The notes beneath the pieces are model-generated. The model was not told the DNA's origin. It saw only the letters and a program-made list of their open reading frames with translations, and ran no database searches. Shown here piece after piece: positions 9,135-36,412 of a DNA stretch of 64,000 nucleotides. The translations under genes were made by a program, and so were the position numbers. Every line of letters begins with the position of its first letter. Position 1 is the stretch's first letter. This stretch comes from Candidatus Saccharimonadota bacterium (GTDB lineage: Bacteria; Patescibacteriota; Saccharimonadia; Saccharimonadales; UBA4665), in assembly GCA_025928155.1 (NCBI GenBank), contig JAICKC010000003.1, positions 9,069-73,068 of the forward strand, read 5' to 3'.

Positions 9135-9710
9135 TTATTGCTTTAATGCGAGTTTGATACGTTCTTCAGCGGGTAACGAGAGGTCGATATCCTTAAGCGC
9201 CACCACGGCATCTTGCGGGGAGTAGCCAAGAGACACCAGTGCTTCGACGGCTTCATCGCCGGCGTTTATGCCGGGGCGGCCCACGATTCCCTGTGCCGTC
9301 TCGGTGACAACCAGGCCCACTTTATCGCGGAGCTCCACTACAATCTGTTCGGCAGCGCGCTTGCCGACGCCTTTAGCACTCTGCAGCACCTTGACGTCGC
9401 CAGCTGCGATGGCGCCACGCACGGCCGGTGCTGTGCCGATATCTAGCACAGCCAGCGCCACCCTGGGTCCTACATTCTTTACCCCCAGCAATTGCTCAAA
9501 TAATCGTTTAGTATCTAGGCTCATAAAGCCATACAGGTCGTAGCCTTGCTCACGGATATGCTCGTACACGTACACTTTTGTCGCCGTGGTGGTATTCCGT
9601 CGCCCGAAATCCTCGGCCGTCACCTGCAGGCCAGATCCTACACCATGCACATCTAGCACTACCATGTCAGCCAGCTTTTCGCTCACCACCCCAGAAAGCG
9701 TCGCAATCAT
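9135..9710 (-). CDS. ruvA: Holliday junction DNA helicase subunit RuvA
   Basis: MIATLSGVV...VLDVHGVG N-terminus. HhH segments (GVKNVGPRVALAVL, SAKGVGKRAAEQIV). Confidence 0.9.
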   Translation of the reverse strand: MIATLSGVVSEKLADMVVLDVHGVGSGLQVTAEDFGRRNTTTATKVYVYEHIREQGYDLYGFMSLDTKRLFEQLLGVKNVGPRVALAVLDIGTAPAVRGAIAAGDVKVLQSAKGVGKRAAEQIVVELRDKVGLVVTETAQGIVGRPGINAGDEAVEALVSLGYSPQDAVVALKDIDLSLPAEERIKLALKQ

Positions 9711-9718
9711 TGGGGATA

Positions 9719-10189
9719 TTATCTCACAGTTTGTGCATGAGTTAATGCAGCGGCAATAGCGTCAGCCGCATCGTCTGGTTTAGGAATTTCCGGCAGGCCG
9801 AGCAACACTCGCACCATTTCCTGCATCTGCTTTTTATCGGCCTTGCCATAGCCGGTGATGGCCTGCTTGATTTGCATGGGCGTATACTCGTAGATTTCCA
9901 TATCCGCCTGTTTGCCGCACAGCAGCACCACGCCCCGGGCCTGCGCTACTGTCATGGCCGTCGTGACATTGCGGGCAAAAAATAACTTCTCCACGCTCAT
10001 GACTTCCGGATGCGTATTGGTGATAATGTCAGTCAGCTCCTCGTAAATGGTTTGTAGCCGCACCGCGTCGTCTTCGTGGACTGGCGTGCGGATCACCCCG
10101 CCGTCTACCAGTGTAGCCTTGCCCTTGGTAGCTTCAATAATGCCGAAGCCGAGTATCCCCGTTCCCGGATCAATGCCGAGTATTCTCAT
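9719..10189 (-). CDS. ruvC: Crossover junction endodeoxyribonuclease RuvC
   Basis: MRILGIDPG start. Length 156 aa. Conserved C-terminal DAADAIA. Confidence 0.9.
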   Translation of the reverse strand: MRILGIDPGTGILGFGIIEATKGKATLVDGGVIRTPVHEDDAVRLQTIYEELTDIITNTHPEVMSVEKLFFARNVTTAMTVAQARGVVLLCGKQADMEIYEYTPMQIKQAITGYGKADKKQMQEMVRVLLGLPEIPKPDDAADAIAAALTHAQTVR

Positions 10190-22688: not shown

Positions 22689-23156
22689 TTAGCTTTTAGC
22701 GGCTAGCTCTTTACTGTTGCCGGATGAGATAGAAATTCGTTTCGCTTCCGGCCGCTCAACCGGAACTTTAATTTTCAAAATACCTTTATCAAGCTCAGCC
22801 TCAATGTTATCGGCATTAGCGCCTTCCGGCAAAACTACGCGACGGGCGAAGCTTGCACGGCTTTCCCGCATCAGGTAGTTGCGCTTCTTGTCGTCGTCCT
22901 TTTGCTTACTTGCTGTTTCACCTTTGATTTCGAGTACCCCGTTTCGGACATTGATTTCAATATCGTCTTCACTAAAGCCGGGCGCCTGCATTTCAACAAC
23001 CATGTGCTTGTCATCTTCACTATAGATATCCACCGATGGCATACTGAAGCCAGTTGGCAGGCCTGTACTTTTCCAAAAGTCATCCAGCAGACGATCAAAT
23101 TCTTCAAAAGTTGATAGTCCGAGAGAAGAGCTTGGACGACGAATGATATCCATCAT
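22689..23156 (-). CDS. Hsp20 / alpha-crystallin family small heat-shock protein
   Basis: ACD signature: VDIYSEDDKHMVVEMQAPGFSEDDIEINVRNGVLEIKGE...F.R.V.LP...A.L..GIL.I.VP. Confidence 0.9.
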   Translation of the reverse strand: MMDIIRRPSSSLGLSTFEEFDRLLDDFWKSTGLPTGFSMPSVDIYSEDDKHMVVEMQAPGFSEDDIEINVRNGVLEIKGETASKQKDDDKKRNYLMRESRASFARRVVLPEGANADNIEAELDKGILKIKVPVERPEAKRISISSGNSKELAAKS

Positions 23157-23322: not shown

Positions 23323-23349
23323 CTAGCACTCTCATGTCAAGAGTGCTAG
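23323..23349 (-). promoter_or_regulatory. CIRCE operator (HrcA site) overlapping the hsp20 promoter
   Basis: CTAGCACTC-tcatgtcaa-GAGTGCTAG versus consensus TTAGCACTC-N9-GAGTGCTAA. On the coding strand the spacer contains TTGACA, followed 17 nt later by TAAACT (23312-17). Confidence 0.85.
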
Positions 23350-26514: not shown

Positions 26515-27024
26515 TTAGTGCTTGCTGTGCTTTTTCTTGCCCTCTTCTTCACCACCTTTGTGTTTGCGGTGAGTAAAGAGCAAAAACACCAAGCTAAACA
26601 CGGCACCCGCCAAAATTACCCCAGTTTGTGCATTGCTCAGCTGATGCCACGCACTTTGCTGATGCACCTGTCGCTGCACGCTCGATGGCAGCAGTGGCAC
26701 CACCAGTAACGCGCAAAGTAACCCTGTGGCCAATGCAGGCAGGACATTGGTGAGGTTTTTGAGTCCTTTTACATGCCCGCGCGTAAATAAAATGGTCAGC
26801 AAAAAGGGTGCGACTAAAAGCGCCAGCTGCACCCATTGATTAGTTGCCAGTGCGTCTTTGTTAACGAAACTCGTAAATACCGTATCGACATCGCTCGACG
26901 TGTACGTCACCAGCACACTGCCCAGACATAAGCTCATAAAGGCTATCGCGCCGTTTACGCGCAGCAGCAAAATAGCTAGGACCGGCACCAGTGCCAGCGC
27001 ACCGAGTATGACCAGTGGTGTCAT
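26515..27024 (-). CDS. Membrane protein of unknown function
   Basis: Five hydrophobic helices and a basic C-terminal tail. Confidence 0.55.
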   Translation of the reverse strand: MTPLVILGALALVPVLAILLLRVNGAIAFMSLCLGSVLVTYTSSDVDTVFTSFVNKDALATNQWVQLALLVAPFLLTILFTRGHVKGLKNLTNVLPALATGLLCALLVVPLLPSSVQRQVHQQSAWHQLSNAQTGVILAGAVFSLVFLLFTHRKHKGGEEEGKKKHSKH

Positions 27025-27064: not shown

Positions 27065-27970
27065 TTATGCGCCGACTCTGTCTTTGCGTGGACGGGCTTT
27101 GGCGTTATGTTCGACGTACTCAATAATCTTCGTCGCTACATCACGACCAGTTACCAGCTCAGGGGTCTTGATACTGGCACTACTATTCACTTCAAGCACC
27201 TTCGGACCATCTTTGGAGCGCATCATGTCCACGCCGCAAATCGGCAGATTCATGGCTTTGGCTGCGCGTACTGCCGTCTTTTCTTCATCGGATGTTAGCT
27301 TAATGGCCGTACCGACACCACCCTGGTGCGTGTTGCTACGAAAATCGTCGTCCAGGCTCTGTCGCTGTATACTTGCCACCACGCGGCCGCCAACGATCAG
27401 GGCACGGATATCGGTGCCGACACTCTCGGCCACAAATTCCTGGACGATGAAGTTCACGCCCTCGACGTAAAATGCCTGCATCACGGCTTTGGCCGCCTTT
27501 TTGGTTTCGGCGAGCACGACGCCGTTGCCGTGTGTGCCGCGAGCAACTTTGATGATCACCGGAGCACCGCCAGCCAGGTCCACTACTTCTTCCAAGTTGG
27601 CGGTTTCACGCGCAAACACCGTCTTTGGGATGCCGACATCCTGGCGGGCCAGAATCTGGTACGAACGCAGCTTGTCACGCGAACGGTTAATGGCAATAGA
27701 GCTTGCCGTCGTATACGAACCCTGCATTTCAAACTGGCGCACTACAGCCGTACCGTACTTGGTGTAGCTCTGGGCGATACGCGGAATTATCGCGTCGAAC
27801 TTTGGTAGCACATTGCCCTTGTAGTACACGACCGGCTTACCTTTCTCCATTGTCATATAGCACTTGGCGTAGTTTATAACTTCCACATCGTGCCCGCGCA
27901 CTTCGGCAATCTCTTTGAGCCGCTTGGTCGTATAGTTCAGAGAGCCTTTCGATAAAATTGCAATCTTCAT
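27065..27970 (-). CDS. rimK: RimK-type ATP-grasp alpha-L-glutamate ligase
   Basis: Collinear with E. coli RimK over its length (MKIAILS..., IPRI......YGTA..RQFE..G......S.AI...RDKLRS.Q.LAR, GAP...K...GT.G.GVVLAE, DFRSN.H.GG). Confidence 0.9.
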   Translation of the reverse strand: MKIAILSKGSLNYTTKRLKEIAEVRGHDVEVINYAKCYMTMEKGKPVVYYKGNVLPKFDAIIPRIAQSYTKYGTAVVRQFEMQGSYTTASSIAINRSRDKLRSYQILARQDVGIPKTVFARETANLEEVVDLAGGAPVIIKVARGTHGNGVVLAETKKAAKAVMQAFYVEGVNFIVQEFVAESVGTDIRALIVGGRVVASIQRQSLDDDFRSNTHQGGVGTAIKLTSDEEKTAVRAAKAMNLPICGVDMMRSKDGPKVLEVNSSASIKTPELVTGRDVATKIIEYVEHNAKARPRKDRVGA

Positions 27971-27979
27971 ATTACTTTC

Positions 27980-29299
27980 CTACTTACTTAGTTCCGTTTC
28001 AATAAATTTGGCAAACGCCACCTGCTTCTCAGCTGTAAACGCCCCGGTCGCGAGTTGCGGACCACTGTTCACTTCAAAACAATACCACTCGCCGGTCTGC
28101 TTGTCTTGTACCATATCCACTCCGGCTACGCCGTGCTCCATGACTTTCGCGGCAGTAATGCTCTGTACCTGTACCGATCCTGGTAGCTCGCTCAAGTCGA
28201 CCAGCCGCGCAGTGCCGCCCTGCGACGTGTTGTTCAGGTGAGTAGACGTACCGTTGCGGCTGCGATATATAACGAGCGCGATGCGCCGGCCTAAAATCAA
28301 AATCCGGTAGTCGCCGTCGTTCGGCACAAACTTTTGCCCTATCATGAAGGTACCTTCGTTACTGACGGCGTCGCAGGCCGTATCGTAGTCTTCACGTGTA
28401 CGGATAAGGTAGTTATGTGCCCCACGACTAGCGTGGATACCTTTCAACACGAACGGTAGGCCCAGGTGCGCCACAAACCGTTCGTACGACGTTCGGAGCT
28501 GGCTCGGCGCGACGTAGAGTGACGCCGGAATGGCGACGTCACTGTCGGCCAAAATAACATACTGGTACAGCTTACTGCTCGGCGCAAAGTGCAGCGTCGA
28601 TTCGTCAATAACTTTTACGCCGCGCTTCTTGAGGTAGCGTCCCATCGCGGCAGTTACATCGCGCTCGCCGGAAGTTTTGAAGTGGACGATGTCAAATGAC
28701 GCGATGTCGTCTCCTGTCGAAATGAGCGTAACGCGTGTCCCTTGCGGACCAAAACAAAACTGTACATCATCGTAGGTAGCGTGCGTAATACTGAGGTCTT
28801 CGGCCGCTTTCTCTACGCCTTTCACGAACTTGCTGACGTTAGGGCTTATGAAGGTACTCATTAGGAGCAAGCGAGCGGAAGTGTCCTGAGACTTTGCGGC
28901 AACGTCTACTAAGAACTTGCCGTGGAGCGTACGCCGGCCAATGAGAATCGGCTGACTGTTGTTTTCACGGTTAGCGAGCGTGAAACGGACGCGGATCGTG
29001 CGGCCAGCCAAACGAACTTTGAGGGTAATTTTATAGCGGAACTCGGCCGCGCCAAATGAATTTTTGATAGATGTGACCCCAAATTTTTTGGTCTGCAGCA
29101 CCTTACCGGTGTAGTACGGCGAGACTTTATCAAACAAGACAAACGAGAGCACGCCGTCGTCTTCGCGGATGTCACTCGCCCACACCGCCGAGCTATCAGC
29201 ACCAGTGTCAACTTTGGCGGGCACCTCAAAAACCCCCAGGTCTGGGAAGTCGATGTTCTCCTTGGGGCCGACAACGGTGATTGGTTTACTGAGCGCCAT
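27980..29299 (-). CDS. Fusion protein: N-terminal RimB-like retropepsin-type protease domain (PF05618-like) plus C-terminal RimK-like ATP-grasp domain
   Basis: N-terminus VGPKENIDFPDLGVFEVPAKVDTGADSSAVWA (DTGA aspartyl signature). The C-terminal half has ATP-grasp blocks (FVLKG.HASRG..N, GDYRILILG, NNTSQGG, GVDMV...GEWYCFEVN). Confidence 0.7.
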   Translation of the reverse strand: MALSKPITVVGPKENIDFPDLGVFEVPAKVDTGADSSAVWASDIREDDGVLSFVLFDKVSPYYTGKVLQTKKFGVTSIKNSFGAAEFRYKITLKVRLAGRTIRVRFTLANRENNSQPILIGRRTLHGKFLVDVAAKSQDTSARLLLMSTFISPNVSKFVKGVEKAAEDLSITHATYDDVQFCFGPQGTRVTLISTGDDIASFDIVHFKTSGERDVTAAMGRYLKKRGVKVIDESTLHFAPSSKLYQYVILADSDVAIPASLYVAPSQLRTSYERFVAHLGLPFVLKGIHASRGAHNYLIRTREDYDTACDAVSNEGTFMIGQKFVPNDGDYRILILGRRIALVIYRSRNGTSTHLNNTSQGGTARLVDLSELPGSVQVQSITAAKVMEHGVAGVDMVQDKQTGEWYCFEVNSGPQLATGAFTAEKQVAFAKFIETELSK

Positions 29300-29506
29300 A
29301 AATGAATCCGGTTTTAGTTACCATTATTATAACACTTTTGGTTATTTATAGCAATACTAATGCTGAGCCCTGGCTACCGCATGATACGACACATACAGCA
29401 CGGCGACAATGATGAGAACCAGGCAGATTATCATCGGTACAAAGCCGCTTTGGTCACGCTGGAAGTTACGCATTTATTCGCACTATACCGCTTTTGGCTG
29501 CGTTTG

Positions 29507-30991
29507 TTAAGCTGCCTCAAGGTATGCGGCTGCCGGATCACCGCCTACCAGCTCGACGTGCTCAGGGTTGGTCGGGTCGAAAGTGGTGCTCATGAGCCAC
29601 CTGAGGCGCGCCTGGCGCACTTCTTTCGGTAGCGCAGCGGTCTCGTTTAGGAACTGGGTAGCTTTGCGCGCACCTACAAAGTAGCTAATGTCGCGGTTAT
29701 CGCGCGCATTGCCGCGAGCGGTGCGCATAACGGAACTGTAGGAAGCCCCTTGTAGTTTTGCTCTGTCTATTGGACCTTTTTCCTGCAATGCCGCCCGACG
29801 CCACATGATCTCGTTCACGGCGTGGAATGACTGCTCTTTACCCATACCAATGTCGTGTAGGCCTTTCAGAAGACCAATTTGCAGGTAGTACTTCACACCG
29901 GGTACGCGTTTTTTACCGCTAAAGATCTGTTCGAGGACTACCGGAAGACCTTCGCCAAAGTCCAGGGTTCGAGGCAAAGAGCTTTGAAGGTGGGGCTGCT
30001 CTTGCATTTTGGCGTTTTGAAATAACCGAGCATGCCAACCCTCGTGCAGCGGCTTTGTGAGCATTTCGTCGGACGTAAAGTCGTTGCGTAACTCACCAAT
30101 AGTAATTTCACTCCGGGCCTCGCTCGCCTCGGCTGCTACTTTCTTACCCGTCAGGATACGGACGGGCCAATCCACCCCCATCGCCCGGAGTGCCGCCTGG
30201 AAGGCAGGCTGAGCGTCTGCCGGCTTTACACTGTGGTCAAGACCAGTATACGGCCGCATAGCTTCCTCAAAATCGGGGAAGATTTCGCAGAAGTCTTCAC
30301 GGATAATCTGCATAGTATCGTCGCGGAGCTCCTCGTATGGCTCTCCCTGGGGCATGGTGGCGAGTTTTTGCTCTGCCTCTTCTCGGCTCTCAAAACCGAG
30401 ACAGCCTAGATACTCGCGGGCGATTTGATCCTTCGCCGCATCCTCTGAACCCCAGTACGCCAGCGCGAGCTGAATATCGGCGGCGAGCATCATTTCAAAC
30501 AGCTCAGTTTCGGGTTCTCCGAAGATTTCGCCGGACATACTCGCAGCGCGTCCCCGTGATTCCTCGGCCCGTACGGCTGCAGTCTCGCGAAATTCCTCAT
30601 CTCTCGCACCTTCGCTGGCGGCGACATGCCCGAGGAGGCGCAAAACCTCCTTATGTCTGTACACTTCAGCCAGCTTAGCAGCCACTTTCTCGTAGATTAC
30701 GGCCGCTTCGGTCGTCTCATCGCCTGTTTGTTCTACATAATCGGTTATGGCGTTGAGTTGTTGCCAGTATTGGCGCTCGGACGCGTCAAGTGAGGGAGTG
30801 TCGAGGAGGGGATAGCGCGTAATCGCCGGCCAGGCACCTTCACCCGCCAGGAAGGCCCTTTTCGCCTCTTTGCGCTCGCCTGAAGCGGCCGCATGGCCTT
30901 CACCGACTCCGTACGGTTCGTTTGAGGGTATAGAAGTGTGCGGTACCTCATTAAATGCTCGTGCAACGTCTGCTAGCACACCGATAGCCAT
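29507..30991 (-). CDS. Putative HExxH metallopeptidase, DUF1704/MATCAP-like (QEGLA-type motif)
   Basis: LHEGWHARLFQN (HExxH) followed by FGEGLPVVLEQ. The family assignment is from motif memory only. Confidence 0.45.
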   Translation of the reverse strand: MAIGVLADVARAFNEVPHTSIPSNEPYGVGEGHAAASGERKEAKRAFLAGEGAWPAITRYPLLDTPSLDASERQYWQQLNAITDYVEQTGDETTEAAVIYEKVAAKLAEVYRHKEVLRLLGHVAASEGARDEEFRETAAVRAEESRGRAASMSGEIFGEPETELFEMMLAADIQLALAYWGSEDAAKDQIAREYLGCLGFESREEAEQKLATMPQGEPYEELRDDTMQIIREDFCEIFPDFEEAMRPYTGLDHSVKPADAQPAFQAALRAMGVDWPVRILTGKKVAAEASEARSEITIGELRNDFTSDEMLTKPLHEGWHARLFQNAKMQEQPHLQSSLPRTLDFGEGLPVVLEQIFSGKKRVPGVKYYLQIGLLKGLHDIGMGKEQSFHAVNEIMWRRAALQEKGPIDRAKLQGASYSSVMRTARGNARDNRDISYFVGARKATQFLNETAALPKEVRQARLRWLMSTTFDPTNPEHVELVGGDPAAAYLEAA

Positions 30992-31031
30992 AGTACTTGT
31001 ATTATACCATAATAACTACGATGTGGCAATT

Positions 31032-32129
31032 CTAGAAGAGGCCACGCTTTTTGCTGCCACCTTTTGCAAACTGCTCTAGCAGCTCTTTTTGCTGACGAGT
31101 GAGCTTGGTAGGAGTATCGACGGTAATAGTTACGATGTGCGACCCGCGGGATTCGGAGCGAATATGGGGCACACCGTGGCTGCTGAGCTTGAAATCGGTG
31201 CCACTCTGAGTGCCGGCCGGGACCTTCATGCGTACCTTGCCGTCTACCGTATCGACATTTATTTCAGTACCGAGCGCAGCTTCCACCATACCAATGTGCT
31301 CTTCGCTCAAGATAAGGTCACCTTCACGCGTAAAATACTTATGAGCCTTGACTCGCACGTGCACGTACAGATCACCTTTCGGGCCGTTGGCGACTGCTTC
31401 GCCGTGTTCCCGTAAGCGTATAGTTGCGCCGTCGTCAATCCCGGCCGGGACTTTCAGCTGCACGTTCTGTGTGCGGCGTTCCGTGCCCTTGCCGTGACAC
31501 ACGGTGCAGACCTTTTCGGGCACTTTGCCGGTACCTCTACAGGTCGGACAGATGCTAGCCTGCTGGATATTGCCAAAAATGGTGCGCGTGGCCGTGACGA
31601 CCTGGCCGCTGCCGCCGCACGTTTCGCAAGTTTTGAGCGAGTAGCCAGGCTCGGCCGTCGTACCTTTGCAGTGGCTGCAGGTGTCTTCGAGGTTGAGCTT
31701 TAGGTTCACGTCGGTGCCAAAAACCGCCTCTTCGAAGCTGATTTCAATGCGAGTTTCCACATCGCTGCCGCGCGCCTGCCTCTGCCTGCCGCCAGGCTGA
31801 CCGCCCCCGAAAAAGCTGCTAAATATATCGCCTAGGCCTAGGTCACCGAAGTCGAAGTTTACGTTCTGGCCGTTAAAGCCGCCAAACGGATTACCGTCGC
31901 TCGCTGCACTGCTGCCCACGCCCGCGTGGCCGAACTGGTCGTAGCGCTGGCGTTTGCTGGGGTCTTTCAGCACTTCGTAAGCTTCGTTAACCTCTTTAAA
32001 CTTCTCTTCGTCGCCACCGCGGTCGGGGTGCAGCTCTACCGCCTTCCGGCGGAAAGCCTTTTTGATTTCGTCGGCACTGGCGGCTTTACCCACGCCAAGC
32101 ACCTCGTAATAGTCACGTTTTTCAGCCAT
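31032..32129 (-). CDS. dnaJ: Molecular chaperone DnaJ
   Basis: J-domain with HPD (ELHPDRGGD), a G/F region, and four CxxCxGxG repeats ([32 protein letters not shown]). Confidence 0.95.
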
Positions 32130-32191
32130 ACTGTAGAGAGTATTTTAGCACTTACTGATGCCGAGTGCCAGGAGGATGTTCCTACTAATCT

Positions 32192-32638
32192 TTATCGTGT
32201 TTTCCACTCGTCGGGCTTTTGAAGGAATGAGTCTACAATTTGCTCGAAGGGCTGTGTGTCATCACCCGTAAAATCCCGAGAACGTACATTTTGGCCATCA
32301 GGCCGCTGAACCTCTATGAAATCCGGTGCTAGGCTATTGTCAGCCCCTACGGCAAACTCTGCCGTGTATTCACGGGCATGCTCAAGGCTACCTCCGTCTT
32401 CTCCAGAGTCTTCTGGCCAACCTTCATGCACAACCACAGAAGCCCGACCACCAACCACTAGACCCTCGACACTGGCGTGGTCTCGTCGTTTTGCAAAGAA
32501 CTGTCTCACGCCCCTTCCCTCAGACATCTCACCGACTACGGCATGCATGAGATCTGCCGCACTAGAAAGCGCGCTCCAGTACTCAGGAGAGTGTTGGTCG
32601 TCTTCTCCGCCTGCCGGTGCAAAAAGGGCTTCTCCCAT
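32192..32638 (-). CDS. Acidic hypothetical protein inserted between dnaK and dnaJ
   Basis: 148-aa ORF on the operon strand with no recognisable motif. Its coding status is unverified. Confidence 0.4.
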   Translation of the reverse strand: MGEALFAPAGGEDDQHSPEYWSALSSAADLMHAVVGEMSEGRGVRQFFAKRRDHASVEGLVVGGRASVVVHEGWPEDSGEDGGSLEHAREYTAEFAVGADNSLAPDFIEVQRPDGQNVRSRDFTGDDTQPFEQIVDSFLQKPDEWKTR

Positions 32639-32692
32639 ATTTTTACTTTACAGCTTACTGCAGCGAACCTTCTGTAAGGCTACGGACACTGG

Positions 32693-34606
32693 CTACTTTT
32701 CTTTGTCGTCAACGACTTCGCCTTCGATGGGACCATCGCCCTTTTTGTCGTCGTCAGAGAGATTTTTGTCCTCTTCGGGAGTCTCTTCTTTGCTCGCCGC
32801 TTCGTACAGCTTAGCACCGATAGGCATAAGTACGCCGTTGAGCTCCTTAGCGGCACCGTCGAGCATGTCTTTGTCGGCGATATCGTCGGCTACGACCTTT
32901 TTGGCTTTCTCGATCGCTTCGTCAATGGCTTTTTTGTCGTCATCGGTCAGCTTGTCACCACTGTCGCTCTTGAGTTTCTCGGCCTGGTAGACGGCGCTGT
33001 CGAGCTGGTTGCGTGCCTCCACGGCCTCTTTCTTTTTCTTGTCCTCTTCGGCGTGGGCTTCGGCGTCTTTGGCCATCTTTTCCACCTCTGCTTTGTCGAG
33101 GCTACCGCTGCCCTGGATGGTAATATTCTGCTCTTTGCCGGTGCCCTTGTCCTTGGCGGTCACGTTCAGGATGCCGTTGGCATCGATGTTAAATGTTACC
33201 TCAACCTGCGGTACGCCGCGCGGTGCCGGCGCGATGCCGTCCAAGATGAATGTGCCGAGCACCTTGTTGCCATCCATCATTTCGCGTTCGCCCTGACCGA
33301 CTTTGATTTCTACCTGCGACTGGTTGTCAGCAGCAGTACTAAACACCTCTGATTTGCTGGTCGGGATAGTGGTGTTGCGCTCGATGAGCTTGGTCATGAC
33401 ACCGCCCATGGTCTCGATACCAAGGCTCAGCGGGGTCACATCCAGCAGCAGCACATCCTTGACATCCCCTTGCAGCACGCCGCCCTGAATGGCAGCGCCC
33501 ACAGCCACCACTTCGTCTGGGTTCACGCCCTTCATTGGCTCTTTGCCGAAGATAGCTTTAACCTTTTCCTGCACGGCCGGCATGCGGGTCATACCGCCTA
33601 CTAGTACTACAGCTTCAATGTCACTAGCCTTGAGACCAGCATCTTTGAGCGCCTTCTCACATGGGTCGGCAGTCTTGGCGACGAGATCACCCACCAGCTG
33701 CTCTAGCTTGGCGCGGGTCAGCTTGTGCTCAAAGTGCTTCGGACCCTCGGCGTCAGCCGTCAGAAACGGCAGGTTGATGTCGACTTCCTGTGCCGTTGAG
33801 AGTTCAATCTTGGCCTTCTCGGCTTCGTCGCGCAGGCGCTGCATAGCCGCGTTGTCTCCGGAGATGTCGATGCCGCTTTCTTTCTTGAACGCTTCAACAA
33901 AATAGTTGACGATAACCCGGTCAAAGTCGGCGCCACCCAGGTGGGTGTCACCGTTGGTGCTTTTAACCTCAAACACGCCGTCGCCGAGTTCCAGGATAGA
34001 CACGTCGAACGTGCCGCCACCCAAGTCGTATACGGCGATCTTTTCGTCGGCTTTGCCACCCTTGTCAAGGCCGTAGGCCAAAGCTGCGGCGGTTGGCTCA
34101 TTGATGATACGCTTCACTTCGAGACCGGCAATTTTACCGGCGTCTTTGGTGGCCTGACGTTGGCTGTCGTCGAAGTAGGCCGGCACGGTAATGACCGCTT
34201 CGGTCACTTTGTCGCCTAGGAAACTTTCGGCGTCGGCCTTGAGCTTACCGAGGATCATGGCGCTGATTTCTTCGGGGCTGTATTCTTTGTCGCCCATCTT
34301 GACCTTGACGCCATTGCCGCTCTTGACGATCTCGTAGCCCATAAGCTTGAGGTCGCGCTGGACTTCTTGGTCGTCGAAATTGCGACCGATGAGGCGCTTG
34401 ACTTCATAAATGGTGTTCTTTGGGTTGGTAACCTGCTGGCGGCGAGCCAGTGCTCCAACCAAACGTTCGCCGTTCTTGTTGATAGCTACCACGCTTGGCG
34501 TAGTGCGATTACCCTCAGAGTTCGCGATAATCTCCGGCTTGCCGCTTTGCATTACGGCCATTGCCGAGTTGGTAGTGCCGAGGTCGATTCCGATAATTTT
34601 TGCCAT
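32693..34606 (-). CDS. dnaK: Molecular chaperone DnaK (Hsp70)
   Basis: [18 protein letters not shown] and [10 protein letters not shown] signatures. Length 637 aa. Confidence 0.97.
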
Positions 34607-34623
34607 GGATATATTCCCTTCCG

Positions 34624-34650
34624 TTAGCAGATAGTCACTTTGAGTGCTAG
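34624..34650 (-). promoter_or_regulatory. Degenerate second CIRCE-like element between the dnaK promoter and the start codon
   Basis: On the coding strand: CTAGCACTC-aaagtgact-ATCTGCTAA. The left arm matches 8/9 and the right arm 6/9. Confidence 0.5.
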
Positions 34651-34670
34651 TACTATTCTAGCATAAAAAA

Positions 34671-34697
34671 TTAGCACTCTCGTGTCAAGACTGCTAA
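34671..34697 (-). promoter_or_regulatory. CIRCE operator overlapping the dnaK promoter
   Basis: TTAGCACTC-tcgtgtcaa-GACTGCTAA (one mismatch). On the coding strand the spacer holds TTGACA (34683-88), followed 17 nt later by TATGCT, with TGcTAGAAT adjacent. Confidence 0.85.
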
Positions 34698-35124: not shown

Positions 35125-35664
35125 CTAGACCGTCTTCACGCGAACCATTGCGTGGCGTATCACTTCGTCACCGAGCTGATAACCAGCCTGGAGCTCTTCG
35201 CTCACCACCTCTTGTGCACCCTCACCCTCTTCCATGCTCACGGCCTCGTGCAGGCGTGGGTCAAACAGCTCGCCAACTGTTTTTATTTTTACAACGCCTA
35301 TGTCAGCCAGCGTCTTTTCGAACTGCTTAACGATGCCTTGTACGCCCTTTATATAGTCATTGGCTTCTAGGTCTGGTGGCACATGCTTAAGGGCACGCTC
35401 AAAATTATCGACAACTGGCAGCAGCGCGCGTACCACGCCTGCCTTGACGACGCTTTGCAGGCCGGTGACTTGCGCTTCATGCCGACGGCGGATATTAATA
35501 GTATCTGCACGCTCACGCTGTAGCGCCTCTGTCAGCTCTTGGACTTGGAGAGCGAGGTCGACGGTCTGAGTGTCGTCAGTCTGGGAGTCTGACGGCGCAG
35601 GGGCGCTTTCTTCCGGCACATCCTTTTGATACTTGTCAGCTTTGCGGCCTTGCTTGTCAGTCAT
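35125..35664 (-). CDS. grpE: Nucleotide exchange factor GrpE
   Basis: Coiled-coil N-terminal half, then the conserved C-terminus FDP..HEA......G.....V.EE...GY.L.D.V.R.A.V.V. Confidence 0.9.
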   Translation of the reverse strand: MTDKQGRKADKYQKDVPEESAPAPSDSQTDDTQTVDLALQVQELTEALQRERADTINIRRRHEAQVTGLQSVVKAGVVRALLPVVDNFERALKHVPPDLEANDYIKGVQGIVKQFEKTLADIGVVKIKTVGELFDPRLHEAVSMEEGEGAQEVVSEELQAGYQLGDEVIRHAMVRVKTV

Positions 35665-36366
35665 TTATAGAACCTCCTCCAATGTCTTACCAGTGTGGGC
35701 AACCAGAGCCATGACGCCCCGATAGCTCTGACGGGTGGGCCCGAGCGTACCGATGTAGCTGTGGTCGCTAAAGGGGCTTCTGAACCGGCTGATGATAAGG
35801 CTAACCCCGGCACTGCGGCCAATCGGGTTTTCGCTGCCGATGTAAACGCTTAAGGGTTCGTTCGGCGCCGCTTCGCGCAGCCATGGCTCCAGGTTGTCGA
35901 GCAACCGTGCCACCTGCTGAACCTGTTGGCCGCTTACAAACTCGGGTTGGCCGAAGAGGTTGCTCAGCCCACTCATGTATAGCTGGTTGCCGATGGTGGC
36001 AAGCCCCAGATTATGCGTGAGTTCTACCAGCGTGTCAACGGCGTTGCGAATGGTACGCTCCGGCATGCCGCCGTGCTGCACCCGGGCGGTCAGCGCACGC
36101 TCAGCCCGCTTTTCGGGCTGCGTGGCTTCAGTTCCTGCAGCCAGATTATTGACGTAAAAACGGTAGCCCCGGTCGGTCGGGATACGACCGGCGCTGGTGT
36201 GCGGCTGACGAATGTAGTCCAGGCGCTCCAACTCTGCCATTTCTGCCCGAATAGTGGCACTAGAGACGTCAAACACTTTGGCCAGCAAGCTGCTGCCCAC
36301 CGGCACCGCCACCTCGGCGTACTGCTCGATGATGGCTGAAAGAATTTGCTTTTGACGCTCTGTCAT
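35665..36366 (-). CDS. hrcA: Heat-inducible transcriptional repressor HrcA
   Basis: MTERQKQILSAIIEQY...VGS..L winged-helix N-terminus. Start placed at 36366 because the longer ORF start would lie inside the CIRCE/promoter. Confidence 0.9.
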   Translation of the reverse strand: MTERQKQILSAIIEQYAEVAVPVGSSLLAKVFDVSSATIRAEMAELERLDYIRQPHTSAGRIPTDRGYRFYVNNLAAGTEATQPEKRAERALTARVQHGGMPERTIRNAVDTLVELTHNLGLATIGNQLYMSGLSNLFGQPEFVSGQQVQQVARLLDNLEPWLREAAPNEPLSVYIGSENPIGRSAGVSLIISRFRSPFSDHSYIGTLGPTRQSYRGVMALVAHTGKTLEEVL

Positions 36367-36385
36367 TACATAACAGTATAGCTCT

Positions 36386-36412
36386 CTGGCACTCAAAACT
36401 CAAGATTGCCAA
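36386..36412 (-). promoter_or_regulatory. CIRCE-like operator and promoter of hrcA (autoregulation); mRNA is near-leaderless
   Basis: On the coding strand: TTGGCAATC-ttgagtttt-GAGTGCCAG (7/9 + 7/9). TTGAGT in the spacer, 17 nt, then TATACT (36375-80). The ATG lies 8 nt after the -10. Confidence 0.6.

Follow-up and report, generated by a model that had tools for sequence, protein, structure and literature searches.

The ligase RimK appends alpha-linked glutamate (Glu) residues to ribosomal protein S6 at its C-terminus. We describe here a locus from a Candidatus Saccharimonadota bacterium in which a canonical rimK gene is preceded by a gene for a RimB-type peptidase domain fused to a second ATP-grasp ligase domain and, further upstream, by a gene for a 494-amino-acid (aa) protein that sequence profiles assign to the MATCAP/DUF1704 peptidase family. 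The stretch of DNA analyzed, termed the window throughout, comprises 64,000 nucleotides (nt) of contig JAICKC010000003.1 (assembly GCA_025928155.1), and the three genes lie in it on the minus strand, directly after dnaJ. Their parts are as follows.

27065..27970, minus strand: canonical rimK (alpha-L-glutamate ligase), by hidden Markov model (HMM) scores and alignment to RimK structures
27980..28876, minus strand: RimK-family ATP-grasp ligase ('ATP-grasp 2') at the C-terminal end of the fusion, residues 142-439, with its pre-ATP-grasp domain
28892..29299, minus strand: N-terminal RimB-type retropepsin-like aspartic peptidase domain of the fusion, residues 1-136, by PF05618
29201-29209, minus strand: catalytic DTG motif of the fusion (D31-G33), in invariant columns
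29507..30991, minus strand: MATCAP/DUF1704-family gluzincin, a predicted metallocarboxypeptidase of 494 aa, by family profiles
30032-30046, minus strand: HEGWH motif (H316, E317, H320) of the 494-aa protein
29951-29953, minus strand: third metal ligand E347 (in GEGLP) of the 494-aa protein

The genes had been proposed in an earlier reading of the sequence (the original prediction). All three open reading frames (ORFs) were confirmed, at 27065-27970 (301 aa), 27980-29299 (439 aa) and 29507-30991 (494 aa), and the motif strings quoted for them are present; given their length and strong profile matches, they are not chance ORFs.

The 301-aa protein matches Rimk_N (PF18030) at 127 bits, RimK (PF08443) at 180.8 bits and TIGR00768 at 241.8 bits, above the threshold of 143.4, and reaches 321.3 bits against the S6-Glu ligase equivalog model (NF007764/PRK10446), 10 short of its cut-off of 331. 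Residues 1-291 align without gaps and with identical numbering to Escherichia coli RimK (5zct, 286 bits), which upholds the collinearity noted at the outset, and residues 1-290 align to Pseudomonas aeruginosa RimK (7qyr, 293 bits); the DFRSN..GG and EVN motifs are retained. Judged by these matches, the protein is a near-equivalog of the E. coli and Pseudomonas enzymes. Between the window and its nearest relatives (loci L001 and L006), identity is 93% for RimK, 88% for DnaK, 80% for DnaJ and 75% for the fusion; for the MATCAP-like protein it is 47% with L001, the L006 copy not being comparable, since there the gene appears as two fragments and its translation includes a stretch of X. Terminal branches of the gene trees have median lengths of 0.09 (RimK), 0.13 (DnaJ), 0.53 (fusion) and 0.97 (MATCAP-like protein). 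By identities and branch lengths together, RimK is very strongly constrained in these small genomes, and its rank among the most conserved proteins of the locus, in genomes of ~1 Mb, suggests that the modification it makes matters for these episymbionts.

Trees of RimK and of DnaJ, built for the same 12 loci, conflict: the former joins the window to L011/L012 and the latter to L002/L007, and approximately unbiased (AU) tests, with clades named after the trees had been seen, reject the other gene's grouping in each case (p 0.0105 and 0.00016). This suggests that rim genes may have been exchanged between Saccharibacteria at a fixed site.

The peptidase half of the fusion protein, in which VPAKVDTGADSSAVWA is present, scores 50.6 bits against PF05618 (cut-off 27) over residues 9-136 and 57.2 bits against NF052261, the RimB equivalog model, far under the cut-off of 200; by these scores the domain is a relative within the RimB family and not an equivalog. 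In 36 homologues, K29 and the retropepsin DTGA (D31, T32, G33 and A34) never vary. An AlphaFold2 (AF2) model (36 homologues; predicted local distance difference test, pLDDT, 89.7; predicted template modelling score, pTM, 0.82) has a beta-rich domain at residues 1-135, a pre-ATP-grasp alpha/beta domain at 142-225 and an ATP-grasp domain running to 439, and the family profile matches PF05618-type structures, namely 9g59 (residues 10-133), 9g58 (24-135) and 2pma (24-125), all entered in the PDB under the name 'putative ATP-dependent zinc protease'. The invariant DTGA, the model and the structural matches thus bear out the predicted retropepsin fold with its DTG motif. The N-terminus, MALSKPITVVGPKE, has no hydrophobic signal of the kind found in signal peptides.

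The ligase half is matched by the RimK ATP-grasp model at 43 bits (residues 249-418) and by TIGR00768 at 75.9 bits, under the cut-off of 143.4. The C-terminal part of the family profile (best stretches within 192-428) matches RimK in the PDB, Foldseek ranks RimK (4iwx and 5zct) and LysX/ArgX at the top, and hhalign pairs residues 3-291 of the window RimK with 144-438 of the fusion at 24% identity. Among the 36 homologues, which extend to 47% identity, there is no variation at the ATP-binding Lys (K286), at D330, R332 or N357, or at the Mg ligands D395, E409 and N411; the GG loop is kept, with G361 nearly invariant, and the mean column identity of the family is 57%. We regard the second ligase as probably active, with an altered specificity. 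The main alternative for this half is that it serves as a regulatory or scaffolding paralogue that assembles with RimK and places the RimB protease beside it, which would leave one ligase and two peptidases. Two altered RimK motif residues (QEF to QKF and FRSN to HLNN) and the occurrence of stand-alone RimB without a second ligase in some relatives (L019) would fit such a role, as would the known binding of RimB to RimK and the behavior of the RimBK hybrid of Desulfotalea psychrophila, which is active as a protease and gave no RpsF glutamylation (PMC11957791). Invariance of K286 and of all three Mg ligands in 36 homologues would be unusual for a dead enzyme, however, and together with the 57% column identity it leads us to think the scaffolding role unlikely.

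The original prediction called the fusion an unusual architecture, a view that has to be given up. Little et al. (2025; PMC11957791) described and assayed a RimBK hybrid, and by their figures 12% of rim-bearing accessions have rimBK and 0.9% have rimBK with an additional rimK. The fusion seen here is represented by at least 610 protein clusters, all named ones being from Saccharibacteria/Saccharimonadales, where its pairing with rimK is common: in all 13 other distinct fusion-bearing loci the arrangement is that of the window, with rimK directly downstream.

The third protein contains KPLHEGWHARL followed by FGEGLPVVLEQ. Its score against PF08014 (MATCAP, formerly DUF1704), 26.3 bits, narrowly misses the cut-off of 27, with model positions 116-220 matching residues 253-356; no other Pfam family is matched at E up to 0.1. 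Eight of its 25 closest relatives match PF08014 at E<0.01. Out of 1.84 billion, a close-relative profile gathered 1171 cluster representatives (E<=1e-3), mostly near end to end, and 8 of the 10 distant representatives scanned lie above the PF08014 cut-off, at 34-67 bits. Invariance across 73 diverse members is confined to the columns of H316, E317, H320 and E347, and R423, R426, G427, D434 and Y437 (the RxxRG..KDxxY block) are conserved in the family. The 73-member profile finds human MATCAP as its only significant PDB matches (7z5g, E 1.4e-6; 7z6s, E 2e-4), and aligns the HExGxH metal motif and the EEGLA and RxxRG..KDxxY blocks to 7z5g; a narrow profile of close relatives alone gave no PDB match, and only the broader alignment reached MATCAP. 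The AF2 model (25 homologues; pLDDT 94.7, pTM 0.91) is nearly all helical. Foldseek aligns it to MATCAP (7z6s/7z5g) with probability 1.00, E 0.07-0.08 and a template modelling (TM) score of 0.42 over ~289 columns, and to the M32 carboxypeptidases 3hq2, 5giv and 3dwc with TM scores of 0.35-0.40 over the full length and E ~1e-2; its PDB matches include none at E<1e-3. The sequence profiles settle the assignment: by the family profile, the distant members above the PF08014 cut-off and the 7z5g match, the protein belongs to the MATCAP/DUF1704 family, in agreement with the original prediction. Membership of M32 was rejected, there being no M32 Pfam match and weak fold similarity only. DUF1704 proteins were reportedly noted beside amidoligases by Iyer et al. 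in 2009, and we know of no bacterial MATCAP/DUF1704 member with an experimentally known function.

The two human proteins TMCP1/2, of the MATCAP family, are gluzincin carboxypeptidases with an HExxxH motif that also remove polyglutamylation (PMC10499314). The HExxH read earlier in the window protein is present, whereas its equation with MATCAP holds for the family and not for the motif. Of 168 family proteins, 118 carry HExxxH alone and 40 carry HExxH alone. On a tree of 65 members at least 5-6 switches between the two are seen, each through a one-residue indel, and the window protein falls in a 13-member clade that is uniformly HExxH (99% support). Because the same four invariant residues are kept, both forms are probably active, and the repeated switching offers a natural experiment on zincin metal-site geometry.

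Gene order was compared by a scan of one genome per prokaryotic species with two short patterns, which reaches close relatives only. It yielded 8 loci in which a close relative of the 494-aa protein is encoded; the titles of seven name Saccharibacteria or Saccharimonas, and that of one says only 'uncultured bacterium'. In these eight, in the metagenomic locus L001 and in the window (10/10), a MATCAP-like gene, the fusion and rimK follow one another on one strand, the nine MATCAP-like proteins being 29-54% identical to that of the window; L009 and L011 have an additional ligase gene, and the heat-shock order upstream of the module is repeated in relatives. In L002, L003/L004 and L017, dnaJ is followed by the fusion and rimK with no MATCAP-like gene; since the fusion can occur without it, the two accessory parts are independent. 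Non-carriers are nested among carriers on the DnaJ tree, so the MATCAP-like gene has been lost or gained repeatedly. The fusion-rimK pair thus stands after dnaJ across Saccharibacteria, and the MATCAP-like gene is an accessory of some lineages.

Distant family members, 17-25% identical to the window protein, occupy variants of the same island. In L014-L016 the order is dnaJ, MATCAP, a glycosyltransferase (GT4) and ATP-grasp_4 pair on the opposite strand, free RimB and RimK; in L019, dnaJ, GGDEF (opposite strand), MATCAP, free RimB and RimK, with no other ligase called in its 13.4-kb stretch; in L021, dnaJ, GGDEF, ATP-grasp, MATCAP, ATP-grasp_4, RimB, RimK and DUF192; and in L020, dnaJ, S51 peptidase, MamF-like, MATCAP and ATP-grasp. 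A MATCAP-like gene adjoins an ATP-grasp or RimB gene in 14 of 15 distinct loci, the exception being L013, where it is not beside dnaJ and two ATP-grasp genes lie three genes off. The functional link proposed for the three genes gains support from this adjacency and from the order conserved among close homologues. With RimK as the sole ligase of L019, the MATCAP-like enzyme is most simply tied to the product of RimK and not to that of the second ligase, and on this comparative evidence RimK's product is most likely its substrate.

A different view of the 494-aa protein is that it is a proteostasis enzyme of the heat-shock cluster, unrelated to RimK and merely sharing the position after dnaJ. 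Its gene begins 40 nt after the dnaJ stop with no terminator predicted between them, has a promoter-like site of its own and a 207-nt gap before the fusion, occurs in some lineages only, and lies in a region with hrcA, grpE, dnaK, dnaJ, hsp20 and three CIRCE (controlling inverted repeat of chaperone expression) operators. Against this stand the absence of a CIRCE site 5' of the 494-aa gene, the ATP-grasp or RimB neighbor in 14 of 15 loci, the L013 member that is away from dnaJ yet three genes from two ATP-grasp genes, and the MATCAP-like genes of L008, L010 and L012, which share a base with the fusion gene or overlap it (taking the longest ORFs). We consider such an unconnected role quite improbable, and retain the reading that the enzyme acts with RimK.

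The island after dnaJ is itself variable, containing in different genomes an extra ATP-grasp without a protease domain, an ATP-grasp_4/GT4 pair or an S51 (PepE/cyanophycinase-type) peptidase (for example L009:2709-3683, L011:11340-12329 and L020:1326-2102(-)). A GGDEF diguanylate-cyclase gene lies divergently between dnaJ and the rim module in five related loci (L001:9023-9808(-), L002:7086-7739(-), L006 ~9404-9796(-), L019:5159-5764(-) and L021:3958-4746(-)), with the GGDEF motif intact in both genes read, L001 and L002; this neighbor recalls the control of RimK by cyclic di-GMP (c-di-GMP) through RimA in Pseudomonas. No GGDEF gene was found in the window by tblastn, and the gap from dnaJ to the 494-aa gene is a mere 40 nt.

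Signals and neighbors around the three genes are these.

26515..27024, minus strand: 169-aa polytopic membrane protein, 40 nt 3' of rimK, a syntenic neighbor
29326..29354, minus strand: promoter-like TTGCTA-17-TATAAT with extended TG, 26 nt 5' of the fusion ATG (10/12 matches)
31001..31029, minus strand: promoter-like TTGCCA-17-TATAAT with extended TG, 5' of the 494-aa gene and within the 40-nt gap that follows dnaJ (11/12 matches)
31032..34697, minus strand: upstream heat-shock block (dnaK, 148-aa ORF, dnaJ), from ORF calls and CIRCE matches
31032-32129, minus strand: dnaJ
32192-32638, minus strand: 148-aa acidic ORF between dnaK and dnaJ, with no family match
32693-34606, minus strand: dnaK
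35125-35664, minus strand: grpE
35665-36396, minus strand: hrcA
22689-23156, minus strand: hsp20
34671-34697: CIRCE operator 5' of dnaK
32145-32171: CIRCE operator 5' of dnaJ
23323-23349: CIRCE operator 5' of hsp20

The fusion stop and the rimK start are 9 nt apart, with a ribosome-binding-like GGAAAG, and the evidence favors reading these two genes as one operon. Extended -10 elements (TGnTATAAT) stand near the start codons at 30991-31029 and 29299-29354, with no clear Shine-Dalgarno sequence. At the 494-aa gene the -10 hexamer is only 9 bases from the ATG, a spacing that implies a leaderless or near-leaderless mRNA, and this gene may have its own transcript, possibly in addition to read-through from dnaJ. 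The original prediction had placed all three genes in one operon; with separate promoter-like sites and a 207-nt gap, a single operon is not shown.

CIRCE-like inverted repeats number 3 in the window, against 0.02 expected, and a scan of the window found them at dnaK, dnaJ and hsp20 and none upstream of the rim genes. The three sites split the heat-shock regulon into separately controlled units, with hrcA-grpE further upstream. In L001 a 145-aa gene, also without a Pfam family, occupies the position between dnaK and dnaJ that the 148-aa ORF has in the window. An Rfam scan of the window returned two tRNAs and no other structured RNA.

Candidate substrates were sought close to the module. No convincing Glu-rich C-terminus was found among the window ORFs. 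In the 207-nt gap there is just one ORF, hydrophobic and 38 aa long, MRNFQRDQSGFVPMIICLVLIIVAVLYVSYHAVARAQH (29357-29473, minus strand), which is probably not a gene because the corresponding gap in the closest relative, L001, measures 87 nt and is too short for a counterpart; it was rejected as a module-encoded substrate peptide on the same ground. The 169-aa membrane protein, which has no Pfam family match, has homologues behind rimK in each of the 13 loci compared, in some of them with a DUF192 gene in between; this protein was also rejected as a tail substrate, its C-terminus being basic (Lys/His-rich) and not acidic.

The lack of a target protein encoded near the module is one of the points that would suit a system making and recycling free poly-alpha-glutamate as a reserve, osmolyte or metal buffer, perhaps decorated by the second ligase, with RimK as the polymerase and RimB and the MATCAP-like enzyme as endo- and exo-depolymerases. 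E. coli and Pseudomonas RimK do make free poly-alpha-Glu, and RimB stimulates them (PMC11957791); the variable ATP-grasp_4, glycosyltransferase and S51 peptidase genes after dnaJ, moreover, resemble polymer chemistry more than a fixed ribosomal mark. RimK, however, is nearly an equivalog of the S6 ligase (321 bits, cut-off 331) and is more conserved than DnaK between close relatives, as expected with a fixed macromolecular partner, and the module has no exporter or storage-related gene. A purely free polymer is, on balance, doubtful.

We think it probable, though well short of certain, that the locus represents the form which the Rim (RimK/RimB) glutamate-tail system takes in Saccharibacteria, with its site directly behind dnaJ. 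From the domain identities, conserved catalytic residues, predicted folds and gene order observed, we infer the enzymatic activities, a Glu-tail substrate, an S6 target and stress-linked expression in the following form. RimK would use ATP to add alpha-linked Glu to a protein C-terminus (that of S6 by analogy), to free Glu to give poly-alpha-Glu, or to both. The RimB domain may cut inside Glu runs, and could dock on RimK and stimulate it by analogy with RimB of Pseudomonas, which cleaves poly-Glu tails and both binds and stimulates RimK (PMC11957791). The fused ATP-grasp might add a different residue, prime the acceptor or act solely as a scaffold, and the 494-aa enzyme would be a metallocarboxypeptidase shortening the tail residue by residue from the C-terminus, like the human MATCAP/TMCP enzymes that deglutamylate tubulin. 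Read-through from the CIRCE-controlled dnaJ promoter could link expression to stress.

Several observations weigh against this interpretation. The D. psychrophila RimBK hybrid gave no RpsF glutamylation in vitro (PMC11957791), and the fusion ligase of the window, with QKF for the QEF of RimK and HLNN for FRSN, has Glu and Arg replaced. The window peptidase has HExxH (HEGWH) and not the MATCAP-type HExxxH, its gene has its own promoter-like site and the 207-nt gap before the fusion, and the gene is dispensable, being missing from many genomes with fusion and rimK (L002, L003, L017). No rpsF/S6 gene was found in the window or in L001-L016 by tblastn with E. coli S6 or by an HMM of three S6 probes. 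No RNA runs containing the stretch were found, and it is present in soil and rhizosphere DNA metagenomes only.

A more far-reaching scheme, which we offer as speculation and consider unlikely as a whole, is a C-terminal 'tail code' in which RimK and the fused ligase are writers and the RimB endopeptidase and MATCAP-type exopeptidase erasers, under heat-shock control and, in the relatives carrying GGDEF genes, c-di-GMP control as well. ATP-grasp tail ligases would then have had the MATCAP-type enzyme as their ancestral deglutamylase partner, and a prokaryotic pair of writer and eraser would be what the eukaryotic TTL/TTLL-MATCAP tubulin cycle descends from or replays.

RimK, RimB and the RimBK hybrid are parts of already known kinds, as are, reportedly, DUF1704 proteins beside amidoligases. 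In the literature searched we found no description of the module's site behind dnaJ throughout Saccharibacteria, of the fusion being regularly joined by a separate RimK, of a MATCAP-like partner that recurs or of the switching of its motif, and no paper combining Saccharibacteria with RimK or MATCAP with a bacterial ATP-grasp. The gene order ties a bacterial MATCAP-like member to RimK and RimB, whose poly-Glu tail chemistry is known; if the enzyme does deglutamylate RimK products, bacteria too would have the partnership of ATP-grasp tail ligase and MATCAP-type trimmer familiar from the tubulin code.

Among characterized systems, the closest are RimABK of Pseudomonas and RimBK of D. psychrophila (PMC4741518, PMC7343187, PMC11957791). 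With the former the window shares RimK and an adjacent RimB-type retropepsin-like peptidase, and with the latter RimB fused N-terminally to a RimK-like ATP-grasp. Unlike these systems taken together, the window has no rimA and has an added MATCAP-family peptidase and a heat-shock site after dnaJ; where Pseudomonas has the phosphodiesterase RimA, several close relatives of the window have a GGDEF gene at the locus. Further differences are the presence of the fusion beside a separate canonical rimK, the rare combination of the published survey (0.9%), and the divergence of the fusion's ligase paralogue, which shares 24% identity with RimK and stays under the TIGR00768 cut-off.

The RloABC system of P. 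aeruginosa (PMC12239564) likewise has a retropepsin-like poly-Glu peptidase and a RimK-related ATP-grasp ligase, although the peptidase domain here is without a signal peptide and fused to a cytoplasmic ligase. No gene for RloB, a 7-TM (seven-transmembrane) inactive transglutaminase, was found in 24-37 kb of the window, and scores with the RloA1-3 HMMs, at 18-33 bits, fall far below the cut-offs of 210-280; membership of the Rlo system was rejected. The 494-aa protein scores just 15.3 bits with TIGR02421. The QEGLA protein of the TIGR02291/TIGR02292/TIGR02421 cassette is one that we take to be in the same DUF1704/MATCAP superfamily.

M32 (Taq-type) carboxypeptidases (3hq2, 5giv and 3dwc) resemble the 494-aa protein in their ~500 aa, all-helical fold and HExxH with a downstream Glu ligand, and their carboxypeptidase chemistry is that of its predicted role. 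Its M32-like size and weak fold likeness come from an extra N-terminal helical region ahead of the PF08014-type core, and the family profile links the 494-aa family to MATCAP and not to M32.

Human MATCAP1/TMCP1 and MATCAP2/TMCP2 (KIAA0895L and KIAA0895; PDB 7z5g and 7z6s) share with it the gluzincin core, the EEGLA-type third ligand and the RxxRG..KDxxY block. The relation is at the level of profiles only (26.3 bits to the Pfam model, TM ~0.42), and the window protein differs in its extra N-terminal region, in HExxH for HExxxH and in having no tubulin as a partner. What the two settings have in common, beyond the fold, is the pairing of a MATCAP-family peptidase with ATP-grasp tail ligases, TTL/TTLL in eukaryotes and RimK here.

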